Source: Acidimicrobiia bacterium
Lineage (GTDB): Bacteria > Actinomycetota > Acidimicrobiia > Spongiisociales > JAHEDJ01
NCBI GenBank assembly: GCA_029210695.1
Contig: JARGFH010000005.1
Coordinates: 48,834 to 112,833 of the forward strand
Reading direction: 5' to 3'
DNA: 64,000 bases
Positions 44,010 to 51,783 of the stretch are shown here, piece after piece. Position numbers and translations under genes: made by a program. The number at the start of each line of letters is the position of its first letter. The stretch's first letter is position 1. Under the pieces are notes generated by a model. The model had not been told where the DNA came from, searched no databases, and worked only from the letters and a program-made list of their open reading frames with translations.

Positions 44010-44855
44010 TCAGCGGGAGCGGCGCCGGTTCCAGCGTCGGTAGAGGTCTACCCAGAGCGGGTCGAATCCGGCCTCGTCGGCGGCCGGCTGATCCTCCACG
44101 GGATCCGGAGTCGCCGGCGTCGTTTGTCCACGGAGTTCCGCCAAGCGCTCCCGGAGGAACACCACCTCGGTCTCGGCTTTGGCGGCGCGTTCCCTGGCAT
44201 CCGCCAACTGCTGGCCGGCCTCGTGGAGGTTGCCCAACTGGTTGAGCATCTTGTTCCACGCATCCAGCGGAACCAGCATCGTGCCTTCAGGGACCTCGGG
44301 CGTGACCGGCTGTGAAACGATTGGTTGTGTTTCAGGGTGATCGGTCGCCGGTTGCTCGTCGCCAGTTGGAGCCTCTTCGGCAGGTTCCGTCGACTGTGCC
44401 TGTACGTCTTCGTCTCCGTCTTCGTCCTTGTCTTCGTCTTCGTCCTTGTCTTCGTCAGACGCGTCCGACCCGCTCGCGTCCACTTCTTCACTAGCGACGA
44501 GCGACTCGCGACTCGGAACTTCTTGACTCGCGACTCGCGACTCGCGACTCGGAACTTCTTCACTAGCGACCCGCGACTCGCGACTCGCGACCTGGGTGTG
44601 CTGGCGCCCCAGGTGATCGGCCCAGGCGATCACCTCGGACAACTCCACGTATCTCCGGTCTCCGGTCTCGTCCAGCTCGAAGCGTGAATCGATGCGCTGC
44701 TTGCGGGCCCAGTTCCGGATGGTCGAAGCGGGGATCCCGGTGAGTTCTCCGGCGTCGTGCAAATCGACCCAGCGTTCGTTGCTTGACGTGTCCTGGGGGA
44801 GCGGGTCGGCCGGTCTGGTTTGCTGGCTGGGGACGGGTCGTCGTGAATCTGTCAT
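44010..44855 (-). CDS. Hypothetical protein: Xis/MerR-like HTH, acidic repeat linker, coiled coil
   Basis: DAGELTGIPASTIRNWARK; repeat linker; LHEAGQQLADARERAAKAETEVVFLRERLAEL. Confidence 0.75.
   Translation of the reverse strand: MTDSRRPVPSQQTRPADPLPQDTSSNERWVDLHDAGELTGIPASTIRNWARKQRIDSRFELDETGDRRYVELSEVIAWADHLGRQHTQVASRESRVASEEVPSRESRVASQEVPSRESLVASEEVDASGSDASDEDKDEDEDKDEDGDEDVQAQSTEPAEEAPTGDEQPATDHPETQPIVSQPVTPEVPEGTMLVPLDAWNKMLNQLGNLHEAGQQLADARERAAKAETEVVFLRERLAELRGQTTPATPDPVEDQPAADEAGFDPLWVDLYRRWNRRRSR
44482..44592. repeat. Three 36-nt tandem units built from GCGACTC heptamers inside a CDS
   Basis: Units begin ACTTCTT at 44482, 44518, 44554. Confidence 0.9.
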
Positions 44856-44975
44856 CGCCGCCAGGATACGACAGCTCAATCGAACCAGGAACTCAGAAGC
44901 TGGAACTAGTTCGTGTTCCCCTATCAAACTCGCCATGAGTTAGATAGACTCAGAGTGGTGAAACGGTCACAGGCG

Positions 44976-45596
44976 ATGAGGCTGGTCGTGGCGGCGGTGC
45001 TGGTTGCACTGGTTGCTTCCGCCTGCGAAACCGTCGAATCCGAGGGAGCGCCCGCCACCACCACGACCGAACGCCTCGAGGTGCTCGATGTGACCGTGAC
45101 GACGAGACCGGGGGTCATTCCGAGGGACGCCACGGCCGGATCCGGCGTGCTGCGGGTTGCCCAGCACAGCAGCGCCACGATGGTCACCACAACGACGTCG
45201 ACTTCGACGACGACCTCCACCACTACCACCACCCCGACCCGACCCCTCGTCCCGTTCCCGGCCGTGCCGTTGCTCACCATCTTCGAGGCGGCTGAGAAGA
45301 AAGCGGTCCACGTGGTCTCCGACCCCTACACCATTGAACCGGACGGGTGCGAGGGGGTCATCTGGACGGCCGGCGGCAACGATTGGTCGGCATTCGTGGT
45401 GACTTCGGCGACGGCCGACGGATACTGCGAGATATGGTTGGGCGGGCAATCAGAGAACCCCGATTACACCGGCAACCCGTTCCTGTACTGCCTCTTGCCT
45501 GAAGATCACGACCCCGTGAAGGTGGCCTCAGACGCCAATTCCGACTGGGTGGCCGAACCGGGGCTATGTGCCCCAACCGGGTTCGACCAGGGCTGA
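44976..45596 (+). CDS. Hypothetical lipoprotein
   Basis: Lipobox VASAC, Thr stalk, four further Cys in the C-terminal domain. Confidence 0.7.
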   Translation: MRLVVAAVLVALVASACETVESEGAPATTTTERLEVLDVTVTTRPGVIPRDATAGSGVLRVAQHSSATMVTTTTSTSTTTSTTTTTPTRPLVPFPAVPLLTIFEAAEKKAVHVVSDPYTIEPDGCEGVIWTAGGNDWSAFVVTSATADGYCEIWLGGQSENPDYTGNPFLYCLLPEDHDPVKVASDANSDWVAEPGLCAPTGFDQG

Positions 45597-45646: not shown

Positions 45647-46204
45647 ATGCCAGATGAAGCAGAGATTCGTAAGGTCGTTCGACGCGTCGTCGAAGGCCTC
45701 GTCCCGGACGACGCCACGCCACCCGGCGGGGAGCAGGCAGAGCACCCCGTGATTGCTGTCGGAGCCGATCATGGTGGATATCCGCTCAAGGAACGGATCG
45801 GGTTTCGGCTGAAGGAGGCCGGCTACGAGGTGATCGACTGCGGTACGGATTCCGCAGATCCGGTGGATTATCCGGACATCGCCCACAAGGTGGCCCGCAA
45901 GGTGGCGGACGGCGAGGCAACCTACGGTGTCATCATTGACGGCGCCGGCATCGGGTCTGCCATAGTGGCCAACAAGGTCCCCGGAGTGCGTGCAGCTCTC
46001 TGTTACGACCTTTCGAGCGCCCGCAACAGTCGGGAACACAATCATGCCAACATCCTCACGCTTGGAGCGGGATTGATCGGCGACGGGCTAGCGTGGCAGA
46101 TCACACAGGAATGGCTCGCCACGCCGTGGGCACCCGGCCGGCATGCTGCCCGCATCACCAAGATGATGGAATACGAGCAGCGCTATGTGAGAGATGAAAC
46201 ATGA
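45647..46204 (+). CDS. rpiB: RpiB/LacAB family sugar-phosphate isomerase with N-terminal extension (BMC-associated)
   Basis: VGADHGG..LK, VDYPDIA, ANKVPGVRAALC, REHNHANILTLG. Confidence 0.9.
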   Translation: MPDEAEIRKVVRRVVEGLVPDDATPPGGEQAEHPVIAVGADHGGYPLKERIGFRLKEAGYEVIDCGTDSADPVDYPDIAHKVARKVADGEATYGVIIDGAGIGSAIVANKVPGVRAALCYDLSSARNSREHNHANILTLGAGLIGDGLAWQITQEWLATPWAPGRHAARITKMMEYEQRYVRDET

Positions 46205-47052
46205 ATCGCGAAGAACTCATTGAGGCGGTGACCGCAGAAGTGCTGGCTGCGCTGTCTGGTTCCACCGACCCTGATGCCGACTGCGAAGGTGCCTGCGCCG
46301 CCCACAGCCCCGACAAGGTGCGGAAGATCGTCGCCAATGGGGCCGGGCGGGTCAGTTACCGGGGAAACGGCGCGGAGGTTCCCCTCGACCTCGCCAAGTT
46401 CATCGATCACACGCTGCTCAAACCCGATGCCACAGCCGATGACATCGACCTGCTCTGTAGAGAAGCCATGGACTACGGATTTGCCGCCGTGTGCGTGAAC
46501 CCGGCCTGGGTGAAGCGGGCGGCCACCAACCTGCGCGGCACCGATGTCCGGGTCGCCTCGGTCGTCGGGTTCCCGTTCGGAGCGACCACCCCGGACATCA
46601 AGGCCATGGAAACCCGCAGAGTGCTGCGGGACGGCGCCCGTGAGATCGACATGGTGATCAACATCGGAGCCCTCAAATCGGGTCAATTCGATGAAGTTCG
46701 AGAGGACATCGCCCGGGTCTCGGATGCGTGCCACGAGGTCGGGGCCATCAACAAGGTGATCATCGAGACCAGCCTCCTCCAGGACGAGGAGAAAGTCATG
46801 GCCTCTCACCTGGCCAAGGAAGCCAAGGCCGATTACGTCAAGACATCCACCGGATACGCCGGTGGGGGAGCAACGGTCCATGACGTGCTGCTCATGCGTG
46901 AGACGGTTGGACCGGACATGGGAGTCAAAGCGTCTGGCGGTGTCCGCAACCGGGCAGATGCCGAAGAGATGATCGCGGCCGGCGCCACTCGAATCGGCGC
47001 TTCGGCCGGTATCTCAATCGTCACGGGAGGAACATCGAGTGAGCAATATTGA
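46201..47052 (+). CDS. deoC: Deoxyribose-phosphate aldolase with N-terminal extension (BMC-associated)
   Basis: [53 protein letters not shown]. Confidence 0.96.
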
Positions 47053-47662
47053 CCTGCGGTCCTTCGTCTTTCTAGACAGCCTTCAACCGCAGTACGCGGC
47101 GTTCATCGGCACGACTGCCCAGGGGTTCTTGCCGCTCGCATACGATGCATCACTGTTCGTCGAGATCGCGCCTGGAATCGAGATCAACCGTGTCACCGAC
47201 ATCGCCTTGAAGTCGAATCAGGTCAAGCCCGGCATGCAGATCGTCGAGCGTTACTACGGACTTCTCGAGATCCACTCGCCTGAGCAGGCGGAGGCCCGGG
47301 GGGCGGGGGCTGCGATCCTCGATGCGATCGGCCTGGCCGAGTCGGATCGCCTGAAGCCGAAAATTCTCTCGAGTCAGATCGTTCGCCGAATCGACGATCA
47401 TCAGGCGCAACTGATCAACCGGATGCGACATGGGAACATGATCATCCCGGGGCAGACGCTCTACGTGCTCGAGTGTGAGCCGGCCGCCTACGCGGCGCTG
47501 GCCGCCAACGAGGCCGAGAAAGCCTCCAAGATCAACGTGCTGGAGGTGCGGGCATTCGGGTCGATGGGCCGGGTCTACCTCGGTGGAGAGGAAGCGGACA
47601 TCGACGTGGGTTGGAGGGCGGCCGTTGCCGCTTTGGAAGGTTTGGAAGGCCGCGAGCAATAA
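47039..47662 (+). CDS. BMC-T shell protein, stacking double-layer (CcmP/CsoS1D-like) type
   Basis: [51 protein letters not shown]. Confidence 0.88.
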
Positions 47663-47680: not shown

Positions 47681-47977
47681 ATGGCCGACGCCCTTGGAAT
47701 GATCGAAGCGAGAAGCTTCGCAGCAATGGTCGAAGCTGCCGACGCGATGGTGAAGGCAGCCAAAGTGGAACTGGTCTCCTATGAGGAGACGGGAGGCGGC
47801 TACGTGACCGCCGTCGTCCGCGGTGATGTCGCAGCCGTGAAGGCGGCCGTAGAGGCAGGCGTACGCGGCGCCGAGCGTGTCGGTGAAGTGGTCGCAAGCC
47901 ATGTCATCGCCCGTCCGCACACCAACATCGATCTCGTGCTCCCGCTCGGCCGTGCCGACGAGGCAGGCAAGGAGTAA
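47681..47977 (+). CDS. BMC-H hexameric shell protein
   Basis: [34 protein letters not shown]. Confidence 0.96.
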
Positions 47978-47988
47978 GGAGGGAGCGC

Positions 47989-48276
47989 ATGCTCCTCGGA
48001 CGTGTATCTGGCACCCTCGTCGCCAGCCGGAAAGAGCCGCGCTTATCGGGGCTCAAGTTCCTCGTGCTCAGCCAACTCGACGTCGACAACACAGAAACCG
48101 GCGGCTACGTGGTAGCCGCCGATGCGGTCGGGGCCGGCGTCGGGGAGGTCGTTCTCTATGCAACCGGCAGCTCGGCAAGGCAGACCGAGTTCACACACGA
48201 ACGGCCGTGTGACGCGGTGGTCATGGCGATTGTCGACACCTGGGAGGTCGGCGGTGATGAGCGCTACCACAAGTAA
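47989..48276 (+). CDS. BMC-P vertex pentamer (EutN/CcmL family) 1
   Basis: [36 protein letters not shown]. Confidence 0.95.
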
Positions 48277-48279
48277 TCC

Positions 48280-49743
48280 ATGAGCCGTCTCACCAGCGAA
48301 GAGATCCGGGCGATCATCGACCGGGTCGATCGGAGGCTCGGCGAGGTTTCCTCATCGGACCGTCCGGCATCGACGCTGCGTGCTCAGGCGGAGCTGGCAG
48401 CCTCGGAAGCTGAGTTAGGCGACGGCATCTACCGGACCATCGACGAAGCGGTGGCCGCCGCCGGTCGAGCCCACCGAGCTTATGCGGCCATGGGCCTCGA
48501 GACCCGCAAAGCGATCGTGGCGTCCATGCGGAAATCCATGCTCGAGCATGCAGAGCAACTCGCCTTGCTGGCCCATACCGAGACCGGGCTGGGGAGGTAT
48601 GAGGACAAGATCCGCAAGAACAGGGTCGTTGCACTCAAGACACCAGGTCCCGAGGATCTCGAACCGGTAGCTATCAGCGGCGATCGAGGCATGGCAGTGA
48701 TCGAATGGGCGCCGTTCGGGTTGGTCGGCGCCATCACGCCGACCACGAATCCAACGTCGACGATCATCAACAACGCCATAGCCATCGTATCCGCCGGCAA
48801 CGCCGCCGTCTTCAATGTTCATCCGAACGCCAAGCGGGTCTCAGCCGAGAACATCCGCTTGCTCAACCGGGCGATCGAGGCAGCCGGCGGCCCGCCGGAT
48901 CTGATCACGGCCATCCCCGATCCAACGATCGACTCTGCCAAAGCGTTGATGCACCATCCCGACGTACCGGTCCTCCTCGTCACCGGTGGTCCGGGTGTGG
49001 TGCGCGAGGCGCAGCAGACGTCCAAGCGGGCGGTGGCGGCCGGGCCGGGAAATCCGCCGGCGGTGGTCGATGAGACCGCCGATATCGACCGGGCAGCTGC
49101 CGCCATCGTGGCCGGTGCATCGTTTGACAACAACATCATCTGTGTTGACGAGAAGGAAGCGATCGTGGTCGACTCAGTCGCCGACCGCCTCCTGCGGGCC
49201 ATGGCGAACAGCGGGGCGTACCTGCTCAAGCAGCATGAACTCCAGCGACTCGAGCGAGTCATCTTTCGGGAACTCGGCCAGCCGAACAAACCCGGCGTCA
49301 TCAACCCGCAGTGGATCGGCAAGAACGCCTCCGAGATCCTGGCCCAAATCGGCGTGCAGGTTGCCGACGATGTCCGCCTGATCGTCGCCGATGTACCTCG
49401 CCAGCACAGTCTGGTTTGGACGGAGCAGATGATGCCGGTCTTCCCGGTGGTCCGGGTTCCGAACGTTGACGTGGCCATCGACCTCGCCGTCGAGGTCGAG
49501 CACGGTTTCCGGCACACCGCCGGCATCCACTCGACCAACGTCGAAACCATCACGCGCATGGCCAAGGCGATGAACTGCTCGATCTTCGTGGCCAACGGAC
49601 CGTTTTATGCCGGCCTCGGCGAGGGAGGCGAGGGGTATTCGTCGTTCTCGATCGCCAGTCCGACCGGTGATGGCCTCACCCGCCCGCGTACCTTCTCGCG
49701 GGAGCGCCGGGTCACCGTGGTCGGTGCCCTGAGGATTGTCTAA
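48280..49743 (+). CDS. CoA-acylating aldehyde dehydrogenase (EutE/PduP-like) with encapsulation peptide
   Basis: ITPTTNPTST, VTGGPGVV, GPGNPP, FDNNIICVDEK (catalytic Cys), EQMMPV, EHGFRHTA, TGDGLT. Confidence 0.93.
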   Translation: MSRLTSEEIRAIIDRVDRRLGEVSSSDRPASTLRAQAELAASEAELGDGIYRTIDEAVAAAGRAHRAYAAMGLETRKAIVASMRKSMLEHAEQLALLAHTETGLGRYEDKIRKNRVVALKTPGPEDLEPVAISGDRGMAVIEWAPFGLVGAITPTTNPTSTIINNAIAIVSAGNAAVFNVHPNAKRVSAENIRLLNRAIEAAGGPPDLITAIPDPTIDSAKALMHHPDVPVLLVTGGPGVVREAQQTSKRAVAAGPGNPPAVVDETADIDRAAAAIVAGASFDNNIICVDEKEAIVVDSVADRLLRAMANSGAYLLKQHELQRLERVIFRELGQPNKPGVINPQWIGKNASEILAQIGVQVADDVRLIVADVPRQHSLVWTEQMMPVFPVVRVPNVDVAIDLAVEVEHGFRHTAGIHSTNVETITRMAKAMNCSIFVANGPFYAGLGEGGEGYSSFSIASPTGDGLTRPRTFSRERRVTVVGALRIV

Positions 49744-50333
49744 TGCCCATGCAGCCGGCCGTCGCTCTCCTCGAGTTCGACTCGATTGCAATCGGCATCG
49801 AAACCGGCGACGCCATGATCAAACGGGCACCGCTCGATGTGATCAAAGCCGGGACGGTTCATCCCGGGAAGTACCTGGTGCTGGTTGGTGGCCGGGTGGC
49901 CGATGTCGAAGAGGCGCTCGAGGCAGGCCGCCTCGTGGGGTCCGAGCACCTGATCGACGAGATGGTGCTGCGTGATGTGCACGATGACGTGGTGGCGGCG
50001 CTGGCCGGGTTTCGCCACGCCGGTGATGGTGAAGCGCTTGGTGTCATTGAGACGACGACCGTGGCGGCCATCATCGAAGCTGCAGACGCCGGCGTGAAGG
50101 GAGCGAGGGTCACGTTGCGGGAGATCCGCATGGCAGATGGATTGGGCGGCAAGGGATACCTCCTGTTCGACGGCCCGGTCGCCGAGGTCGAAGCGGCCGT
50201 CGAGATCGGCTCCGATCGGGTGCCCGATCAGCTCGTCGCCCGGCGGGTGATTGCCCAGATCCATGCCGAGATGGACGAGAACCTGGTAGCCGACGGTCGA
50301 TTCCGCCCGCGGATGCGAGGTGGAACCCAGTGA
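49743..50333 (+). CDS. BMC-T shell protein, PduT-like
   Basis: LEFDSIAIGIETGDAMIK, PGKYLVLVGG, ADAGVKGA, GLGGKGY. Confidence 0.9.
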   Translation: MPMQPAVALLEFDSIAIGIETGDAMIKRAPLDVIKAGTVHPGKYLVLVGGRVADVEEALEAGRLVGSEHLIDEMVLRDVHDDVVAALAGFRHAGDGEALGVIETTTVAAIIEAADAGVKGARVTLREIRMADGLGGKGYLLFDGPVAEVEAAVEIGSDRVPDQLVARRVIAQIHAEMDENLVADGRFRPRMRGGTQ

Positions 50334-50400
50334 GCCGGGGTGCGATCTGCAGCGGTTCTGTGCGACGCTTCGAGTCGCCGGGAGGTCGCAACTGGGTCGG

Positions 50401-50460
50401 TCCCCCCGGAGGGGGGAAGGTACCTGCGCCGGAGCGAAGCGGAGGCGGAGGTAGGGGGGC
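50401..50460. repeat. GC-rich two-hairpin intergenic element
   Basis: TCCCCCC-GGA-GGGGGGA and TACCTGCGCC-GGAGCGAAGCGGA-GGCGGAGGTA. Confidence 0.55.
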
Positions 50461-50508
50461 CAACCGGCAAACACCGTCCGCGGAACAAGATACCCGTCGG
50501 GGGGGTTC

Positions 50509-50784
50509 ATGCAGTTAGGCCGTGTCATCGGGACGGTGGTGGCTACCGAAAAGACCCCGAACCTCGAAGGGGTGAAGTTTCTCATCGTGCAGCCGCTGAC
50601 GAAGGAACTCGAGCCGACCGGCAGGGCAGTGGTAGCCGCCGACGGGGTAGCGATGACCGGACCCGGCGAACTCGTCTATATCGTCGATTCGCGCGAGGCT
50701 GCCCAGGCCATGCCGGAACCATTCGTGCCGGTGGACCACGCGATTGTCGGCATCGTTGATGACGTGACCCTGGAGGGCTCATGA
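50509..50784 (+). CDS. BMC-P vertex pentamer 2
   Basis: MQLGRVIGTVVATEK, VAADGV, VDHAIVGIVD. Confidence 0.95.
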   Translation: MQLGRVIGTVVATEKTPNLEGVKFLIVQPLTKELEPTGRAVVAADGVAMTGPGELVYIVDSREAAQAMPEPFVPVDHAIVGIVDDVTLEGS

Positions 50785-50854: not shown

Positions 50855-51124
50855 ATGAAGATCGCCAGAGTGGTCGGCACGGTCGTCTCCACGATCAGCG
50901 CACCGATCTTCGATGGGCAACGGCTCCTGCTCTGCGACTACGTCGACCCGACCGGTGAGCCGACGGGCGGCTACGTCATCGCCGTCGACGTGGTCGATGC
51001 CGGGGCGGGCGAAACGGTCCTCATCCTCGATGAGGGTACGAGCGCCCGGCAAATCATGGGCGAGAAGGTGGCGCCGATTCGGGCGATTGTCGTAGGTGTG
51101 GTGGATGAAGTGGAGGCGTCGTGA
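50855..51124 (+). CDS. BMC-P vertex pentamer 3
   Basis: MKIARVVGTVVST, AVDVVDAGAGETVL, IRAIVVGVVD. Confidence 0.95.
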   Translation: MKIARVVGTVVSTISAPIFDGQRLLLCDYVDPTGEPTGGYVIAVDVVDAGAGETVLILDEGTSARQIMGEKVAPIRAIVVGVVDEVEAS

Positions 51125-51783
51125 GCATTAATCCGCAGCTCTACTCCAGATTGCTACGTTCTCATCCGTGGCACGGTGTTCCGATCGGCGCGGGGGCTCC
51201 TGCGACCGTCACCGCCTATATCGAGATCGTCCCTTCCGACACCGTCAAATACGAACTGGACAAGGAGACCGGCATTCTCAAGGTCGACCGGCCGCAGCAG
51301 TTCTCGAATGTCTATCCGACGTTGTACGGGTTGATTCCACAGACGTACTGTGGAGAACGGATCGCCGAGTTGTGCATGGAGCGCGCCTCGCGCACCGGCA
51401 TCGTGGGTGATGGCGATCCCCTCGATGTCTGCGTTCTGGCCGAGAAGTCGATCACACACGGCGACATCCTGTTGCCCGTCGTACCGATCGGCGGATTGCG
51501 GATGATCGACGGCGAAGAGGCCGACGACAAGATCATCGCCGTCATGAGGGGCGACGCCATATACGGGCACATGAAGGACATCTACGAGTGTCCGCCGGCG
51601 CTCATCGACCGTCTCAAGCACTACTTCCTGACCTACAAGCAGGCTCCGGGACCCGGCACGCGCAAAACGGAGATCACCCACGTGTACGGCCGCGAAGAAG
51701 CGCACGAGGTGATCGAGCGCAGCATGGCGGACTATGCAGAATCGTACGGCGACATACAGGGTTTGCTCGGCGAGCTCAGCTGA
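51121..51783 (+). CDS. ppa: Family I soluble inorganic pyrophosphatase
   Basis: HPWHG, VKYELDK, VDRP, YGLIPQT, DGDPLDV, ADDKIIAV; GTGA overlap with BMC-P3. Confidence 0.93.
   Translation: MSINPQLYSRLLRSHPWHGVPIGAGAPATVTAYIEIVPSDTVKYELDKETGILKVDRPQQFSNVYPTLYGLIPQTYCGERIAELCMERASRTGIVGDGDPLDVCVLAEKSITHGDILLPVVPIGGLRMIDGEEADDKIIAVMRGDAIYGHMKDIYECPPALIDRLKHYFLTYKQAPGPGTRKTEITHVYGREEAHEVIERSMADYAESYGDIQGLLGELS

Follow-up and report, generated by a model that had tools for sequence, protein, structure and literature searches.

In the window (the whole 64,000-nucleotide stretch of Acidimicrobiia DNA that was analysed, and to which the coordinates refer), an operon on the forward strand starts with the gene of an Asp-type RpiB-family protein, here called RPI (45647..46204, 185 amino acids), which was identified by its PF02502 match, an AF2 model and a phmmer alignment with PDB sequences. 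As read in the sequence, the TGA stop codon of this first gene overlaps the ATG of the second one as ATGA. The second gene (46201..47052) encodes a DERA (deoxyribose-5-phosphate aldolase, DeoC family) of 283 amino acids (PF01791, E 2e-19), and it is followed on the same strand by the genes for a divergent BMC-domain shell protein, probably a BMC-T (47039..47662, 207 amino acids; weak PF00936 match, E 9e-4), a BMC-H shell hexamer protein (47681..47977; PF00936, E 2e-29), a first BMC-P vertex protein (47989..48276; PF03319, E 2e-27), a metabolosome aldehyde dehydrogenase (AldDH) with an N-terminal amphipathic helix (48280..49743; PF00171, E 3e-38; helix moment 0.67), a tandem-domain BMC-T shell protein (49743..50333; PF00936 in two stretches, E 6e-34), and a second (50509..50784; PF03319, E 6e-26) and a third (50855..51124; PF03319, E 5e-24) BMC-P vertex protein. 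An open reading frame of 139 amino acids (50340-50759) that overlaps the second BMC-P gene in another frame matched no family and is unlikely to be a real gene, which would leave about 175 nucleotides of non-coding DNA inside the operon.

RPI, DERA and AldDH are the only enzymes of the locus, and the BMC-P triplet is present. The SPU3 type, as described in Supplementary file 6 of Sutter 2021, combines AldDH with pfam01791 and pfam02502 and has Actinobacteria among its hosts. The window locus fits an SPU3-like rather than an SPU6 subtype, an assignment made by enzyme composition only because Acidimicrobiia are not named in the supplements of the 2021 microcompartment catalogue. Among 80 related genome loci, nearly all of them labelled Acidimicrobiia, the order RPI-DERA-BMC-BMC-H-BMC-P-AldDH-BMC-T-BMC-P was common to all as far as the contigs reach; DERA lay directly downstream of RPI in all 80, and a homologue of the divergent BMC-domain protein was found at a conserved position in 77.

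The surroundings of the operon are less constant. A divergently transcribed gene upstream (44010-44933, reverse strand) encodes a helix-turn-helix protein with a weak MerR/HTH_17 match; 58 of the 80 related loci have a homologue of this protein immediately before RPI, and the protein may be a regulator of the operon. The open reading frame of 227 amino acids between this gene and RPI (44913-45596) recurs in a single related locus out of 80 and is therefore not regarded as a conserved part of the locus. At the other end, an inorganic pyrophosphatase gene (51121-51783, forward strand) overlaps the last BMC-P gene; since a homologue follows the operon in just 1 of the 80 related loci, this linkage looks local rather than a feature of the organelle.

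The core of the DERA protein is very close to solved DERAs that are active (E 1e-83 to 8qps over residues 62-282), and the protein carries a 61-residue N-terminal extension. Its three D/K/K motifs, including YVKTSTG, align with those of solved DERAs, and we take them to be the catalytic residues. It is the sole DeoC-family gene of the 3.9-Mb genome. The extension (46201-46390, forward strand) has a helix-like start and then a C-x3-C-x2-H pattern, ahead of the TIM barrel that begins at about residue 62.

RPI itself consists of an amphipathic helix (residues 4-18), a linker rich in Pro, Gly and acidic residues (19-34) and an RpiB domain (36-180). The PF02502 LacAB_rpiB match covers residues 36-173 and profile positions 1-138 of 138 (E 3.4e-51; 173.3 bits against a cut-off of 24.7), and a phmmer search against all PDB chains returned RpiB and LacAB structures only. 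The initial annotation had described an RpiB with IDGAGIG in place of ICGTGxG and a retained ring-opening His in the EHNHAN stretch, and the open reading frame, the PF02502 match and the alignment of the loop with PDB sequences all agree with that description. Residues 94-110 read GVIIDGAGIGSAIVANK, EHNHAN corresponds to residues 130-135, and the loop IIDGAGIGS differs from the canonical ICGTGxG in the exchange of Cys for Asp98 and of Thr for Ala100. The catalytic loop D98-G-A100-G-I-G-S104, which is followed by N127, H131 and N132, aligned by phmmer without gaps with the loop of C. thermocellum RpiB (GIVICGTGLGISIAANK) and in the same way with those of the T. maritima, trypanosomatid and E. 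coli enzymes. This column-by-column alignment places Asp98 at the position of E. coli Cys66 and Ala100 at that of the Thr/Ser proton shuttle.

The rest of the classical site is retained. According to the roles of the RpiB mechanism residues as summarised in PMC4783025, the equivalents of E. coli Asp9/His10 (D41/H42), of His99/Asn100 (H131/N132) and of Arg133/His134/Arg137 (R165/H166/R169) are all kept, H131 being at the position of the ring-opening His and R165, H166 and R169 at those of the phosphate binders of canonical enzymes. Neither of the two established catalytic bases is available, as had been anticipated in the initial annotation: Asp98 occupies the position of E. coli Cys66, and Ser104 that of Glu75 in the M. 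tuberculosis enzyme. The Thr/Ser shuttle two residues past the base position is likewise absent, Ala100 standing there instead.

In the AF2 model (pLDDT 93.5; about 66 in the linker), Asp98 is the last residue of strand 93-98, the first turn of helix 102-108 contains Ser104, and Asn127 is one helical turn ahead of His131. The best Foldseek matches of the model were all RpiB structures, and its superposition on C. thermocellum RpiB (3he8; TM 0.98, rmsd 0.6 A) indicates that the backbone is unchanged and that only side chains of the pocket differ. Helix 4-18 has a hydrophobic moment of 0.69, higher than that of every later 15-mer of the protein, and on the strength of this calculation and the model it is predicted to be encapsulation-peptide-like.

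A second PF02502 gene is present on another contig (C100) of the same genome; it has no N-terminal extension and its product carries a canonical CGSG loop, GIVVCGSGAGAAIAANK (VVCGSGAG). Because of this Cys-type paralog, the RPI of the window is not regarded as the ordinary R5P isomerase of the cell. In a sample of 301 genomes of the class, 51 contained an ortholog of the window RPI (E <= 4e-64, at least 59% identity), 50 of them in the same order, and the remaining family matches were clearly set apart (E >= 3e-44, at most 52% identity), so that two groups were cleanly split; 49 of the 51 genomes with an Asp-type ortholog also had a second family match. One of the 51 (G250) and two genomes with the Cys type alone (G212 and G275) are unpublished, and their removal changes nothing.

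The substitution was equally constant among the homologues. The strict D..A pattern occurred in 119 of the 120 closest database homologues of RPI, and the exception (P0114) also has DGAG and missed the pattern only through ADK in place of ANK. All 80 related genome loci bear the D98-A100-S104-N127 signature, and all 80 more distant metagenome loci were Asp-type as well. A HMMER search of cluster representatives gave a set of 152 rows (the best 150 matches, the window protein and its Cys-type paralog), of which 129 were Asp-type, 21 Cys-type and 2 of the M. tuberculosis type (G-S-E). In a FastTree phylogeny calculated after masking of the signature columns, six Cys/Gly-type sequences nested among the Asp types with weak support, and the tree did not settle whether the Asp type is monophyletic.

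Conservation was counted in 123 full-length Asp-type representatives with a median pairwise identity of 51%. D98, G101 and S104 were invariant (123/123 each), and H131 (121), N132 (120), R169 (119), D41, R165 and H166 (117 each) and H42 (116) were nearly so. N127 was present in 105 of the 123, Cys-type sequences having Met, Leu or Ala at this position, and, among the residues listed, position 100 was occupied by Ala in 104, Val in 8 and Leu in 3, which leaves 8 others. Position 104 is Ser in the Asp type, Met or Ile in the Cys type and the catalytic Glu in the G-S-E sequences. Conservation reached 94% or more in 30 of the 145 domain columns, and these include eight of nine pocket positions defined in the literature (hypergeometric P about 1e-5), a value that has to be read with the facts that the eight include Asp98, by which the group is defined, that the sequences are mutually related and that the pocket lies at the subunit interface. 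The median identity between Asp-type and Cys-type domains was 46%, and within the Asp type it was 51%, so that relaxed evolution, which a decayed pseudoenzyme should show, is not apparent. As judged from these homologues, the exchange of Cys for Asp is no chance event or sequencing oddity. The invariance of Asp98 and Ser104, together with the high conservation of the classical pocket residues, makes the pocket look retooled and selected rather than decayed.

The motif had already been characterised in SPU enzymes, a circumstance that the initial annotation had listed as speaking against its proposal. Dwyer, Sutter and Kerfeld (Commun Biol 2024, PMC11585597) reported that Cys66 is replaced by Asp, with His99 kept, in all SPU RPIs, and their discussion covers the Glu variant of mycobacteria as well as the Asp found in LacA. 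In their work the RPI of a Chloroflexi SPU6 locus was a tetramer with negligible activity from R5P to Ru5P beside an active E. coli control, and it formed an approximately 1:1 complex with DERA in which Km and Vmax for dR5P were the same as for DERA alone, the SPU DERA cleaving dR5P with or without RPI. They also described RPI-DERA fusions in SPU3, the absence of RPI from all SPU5 loci and from 11 of 29 SPU4 loci, and the co-occurrence of triosephosphate isomerase (TPI) with RPI in SPU1 and SPU4 loci, and they considered the catalytic role of SPU RPI enigmatic and suggested that it may have evolved into a factor for packaging. A 2025 preprint (PMC12747264) describes SPU microcompartments in Asgard archaea and has nothing further on RPI function. 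The Asp substitution of SPU RPIs has thus been known since 2024, and the window represents a correct reading of a known case; what the present sequence comparison adds is the separate Cys-type RpiB, the D-A-S-N signature in 80 of 80 loci, the invariance of Asp98 and Ser104, and the conservation of the pocket.

Compared with the Chloroflexi SPU6 protein (PMC11585597), the RPI of the window has the same Asp at the Cys66 position, the same retained His99 and an N-terminal helix of the encapsulation type, and its gene likewise stands beside that of DERA in a locus with AldDH, BMC-H, BMC-T and three BMC-P genes. Unlike the SPU6 protein, it comes from Acidimicrobiia, belongs to an SPU3-like enzyme set, has a short extension of 35 residues and is known from sequence. 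With the RpiB of E. coli and C. thermocellum (1nn4, 3he8) it shares the fold (51% identity to 3he8) and the Asp/His, His/Asn and Arg/His/Arg residues of the pocket, and it differs from them in the Cys-to-Asp, Thr-to-Ala, Met/Ile-to-Ser104 and Met/Leu-to-Asn127 exchanges, in its additional N-terminal helix of the targeting type and in not being the housekeeping copy. The M. tuberculosis RpiB (1usl, 2bes), which uses Glu75 as the base together with Ser71, likewise has no such Cys, and its catalytic loop contains a carboxylate; in the window protein, however, the carboxylate is at the Cys position, the Glu75 position is an invariant Ser, and the Ser71/Thr68 position is Ala. LacA, which was matched by the window RPI at E 1.5e-19, also belongs to the RpiB family and has Asp in place of the Cys (PMC11585597), but it works only as a heteromer in which LacB supplies the Cys. 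The window locus encodes no LacB-like partner, and the SPU ortholog forms a homotetramer and binds DERA (PMC11585597).

The explanation that we prefer, and that we hold with about even confidence, is that the window protein is the RPI subunit of an SPU-type (SPU3-like) microcompartment in which the pocket is still used, and which in addition helps with packing. According to this model, an RpiB paralog would be co-translated with DERA and would enter the organelle by means of its N-terminal amphipathic helix, and its pocket would most likely bind a pentose 5-phosphate such as dR5P. Asp98, Ser104 and Asn127 would form a retooled polar site performing a step other than the aldose-ketose isomerisation of R5P, such as substrate capture, ring opening or anomer handling beside DERA, and the helix of RPI and its contact with DERA would aid the packing of the enzyme core. 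The composition of the loop supports the view that the protein would be unable to run the classical enediol isomerisation: since the proton-abstracting Cys and the Thr that shuttles protons between O1 and O2 are gone, and a canonical RpiB is encoded elsewhere, RPI is not regarded as the R5P isomerase of the cell. By analogy with the SPU6 ortholog (PMC11585597), the window protein may be a homotetramer in a 1:1 complex with DERA, with negligible activity from R5P to Ru5P and without effect on DERA kinetics; the ATGA overlap and the RPI-DERA fusion proteins that we found (P0135, P0176 and P0183) appear to point to the same coupling.

Several observations weigh against a pocket in use. By analogy, the only ortholog that has been assayed, from a Chloroflexi SPU6 locus, would argue for a protein without useful activity that leaves Km and Vmax of DERA unaltered (PMC11585597). 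The residues of the pocket lie at the dimer interface, and their conservation could be partly structural, while the counts come from related sequences in a group that is defined by Asp98 itself. The DERA of the window has its own N-terminal extension, and RPI may not be required for its targeting. SPU5 loci and 11 of 29 SPU4 loci do without RPI altogether (PMC11585597).

Ring opening deserves a separate comment. The furanose form makes up 99.8% of dR5P, and DERA has no ring-opening His. A helper function is chemically attractive, the ring-opening residues of RpiB being exactly those that are retained. Its kinetic rationale is weak because the rings of pentose phosphates open rapidly by themselves (40-100 per s), a step that should not be limiting for DERA (PMC5975929), and DERA was not accelerated by RPI (PMC11585597); as the main explanation, a ring-opening helper for DERA was accordingly down-weighted. 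A bolder proposal, which we put forward tentatively, is that the Asp-type RPIs are a distinct active subfamily whose Asp98/Ser104/Asn127 pocket carries out an unrecognised pentose-phosphate step next to DERA. Examples of such a step would be catalysed ring opening, the selection of an anomer, proton exchange at C2 of dR5P or the conversion of a rare phosphosugar, and, if the proposal is true, the SPU organelle has a second, still unrecognised chemical function.

The reading favoured in PMC11585597, that RPI is purely a packaging pseudoenzyme, is one that we regard as possible but rather doubtful. Catalysis and the use of ligands would have been lost, and a scaffold bearing the encapsulation peptide would bind DERA and nucleate the enzyme core. 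Such a scaffold would account for the negligible isomerase activity of the ortholog, its stable 1:1 complex with DERA, the unaltered kinetics of DERA and the typical encapsulation peptide (PMC11585597), and also for the strongly amphipathic N-terminal helix and the ATGA overlap with DERA in the window; CcmM and the inactive AldDH copy of GRM loci are the precedents cited by these authors (PMC11585597). A scaffold, however, needs none of D41, H42, H131, N132, R165, H166 and R169, which are nevertheless kept in 94-98% of the Asp-type representatives (n=123, about 51% identical), nor does it need the invariant pair Asp98/Ser104. The similar identities between Asp and Cys types (46%) and within the Asp type (51%) give no hint of relaxed evolution, and DERA has an N-terminal extension of its own.

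RPI might also be an aldose-ketose isomerase that is active through an RpiB site of a third kind, in which Asp98 would be the base and Ser104 the hydroxyl; this reading, which takes up the main idea of the initial annotation, seems unlikely to us. The substrate would be R5P under untried conditions or another phosphosugar (allose-6-P, arabinose-5-P or a tetrose phosphate). A carboxylate base, Glu75, does work in M. tuberculosis RpiB (PMC4783025), the model and the alignment put Asp98 at the end of strand 93-98 exactly at the Cys site and Ser104 at the site of the mycobacterial Glu, the backbone superposes on that of an active RpiB at 0.6 A, the pocket is strongly conserved, and RpiB enzymes are often promiscuous (PMC11585597). 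On the other hand, the ortholog had negligible activity from R5P to Ru5P beside a working E. coli control (PMC11585597), the C69S and C69A exchanges abolish the activity of canonical enzymes (PMC4783025), and position 100 was never constrained to a hydroxyl residue in the 123 representatives. In addition, no pathway logic ties a pentose or hexose isomerase to DERA in a shell from which transketolase is absent (PMC11585597). Of the annotation's alternative that Asp acts as the base or that the substrate or reaction differs, what stands is that RPI is not the ordinary R5P isomerase of the cell, and the suggestion of triose or tetrose substrates finds no support.

The products of DERA are G3P and acetaldehyde. 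A tetrose phosphate is not among them, which leaves the proposed isomerisation of a tetrose-phosphate aldolase product unsupported. The isomerisation of G3P and DHAP is made unlikely by the Arg/His phosphate cluster, which is at its canonical place: a phosphate site retained at pentose/hexose distance from the base would fit a C5 or C6 sugar phosphate, and a triose would be too short to span the two. TPI, moreover, co-occurs with RPI in SPU1 and SPU4 loci (PMC11585597), and a triose or tetrose isomerase was rejected as being without support. Nor is a changed role of the organelle, as the annotation had envisaged, borne out, the published SPU DERA cleaving dR5P whether or not RPI is present (PMC11585597).

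The idea that Asp98, at the N-terminus of an anion hole of backbone amides, is a phospho-acceptor, and that RPI is a phosphopentomutase that feeds DERA by interconverting dR1P and dR5P, appears very improbable and was rejected as unnecessary, because a canonical DeoB is encoded in the genome (TIGR01696, 417 bits, above the cut-off) and no pathway gap exists, and because the metal site and the second nucleophile motif are absent and there is no experimental hint. What speaks for it is geometry, in that a pentose 1,5-bisphosphate would be expected to span the distance from the Arg/His cluster to the anion hole by Asp98, with His131 as the acid, and the resemblance of the RpiB fold to the Cys-P-loop phosphatase and PTS-IIB folds.

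Asp-type RPIs were also found away from shell genes. Some long metagenome loci had no shell genes within 7-10 kb, with DERA in L156, L102, L161, L122 and L088 and without it in L121, L141, L132, L084 and L119. The RPIs of these loci still bear either helices of the encapsulation-peptide type or a small module, ITPLAxD, that gave a weak PduM-like match, and the loci may be parts of fragmented ones, since FRAG5 and FRAG8 loci with the same enzymes are known from the Sutter 2021 catalogue; an Asp-type RPI that is independent of a microcompartment was therefore not claimed. In many Asp-type RPIs outside Acidimicrobiia, the RpiB domain is preceded or followed by a conserved module of about 45 residues with the pattern ..ITxxDV....G.L.I.....(I/V/L)TP.A.D.A...GI.(I/V/F)... 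It was located at L121:9791-9991, L132:9803-9976, L084:9803-9970, L119:6435-6620, L156:7080-7250 and L122:9794-9940, and also in the C-terminal tails of P0175, P0177 and P0228, and it is absent from the window protein. The module had no significant Pfam match, giving weak matches to the C-terminal part of PF15953 (PDU_like/PduM; E 0.02-0.08), and it may represent a second type of module for association with microcompartments.

Two groups of these loci have partners of a different sort. In three soil metagenome loci (L156:4939-10247, L102:6806-11260 and L161:7725-13138), an Asp-type RPI with both an encapsulation-peptide-like helix and the 45-residue module is encoded together with DERA directly after a split 5'-nucleotidase (5_nucleotid_C and Metallophos genes) and before a VWA protein, with no shell genes within 7-10 kb; this context of nucleotide catabolism may be part of a fragmented microcompartment locus. 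In L121:5424-12116 and L141:5005-12112, on contigs of 429 and 574 kb, the Asp-type RPI keeps a Thr at position 100 (D-T-S), and its operon partners are a sodium:solute symporter, an aldehyde dehydrogenase, a succinyl-CoA-ligase-beta-like protein and a carboxyltransferase, DERA and shell genes being absent within 10 kb.

Few bacterial organelles are as widespread as SPU microcompartments. The role of RPI, their second signature protein, is an acknowledged question of the whole family, and the residual interest of the present results lies there rather than at the window locus. The invariant Asp and Ser, the conserved Asn and the intact phosphate-binding and ring-opening residues argue for a pocket that is still under selection, and, since the pocket appears to be so, ligand-binding experiments and the study of pocket mutants are worthwhile before the protein is judged to be a scaffold.
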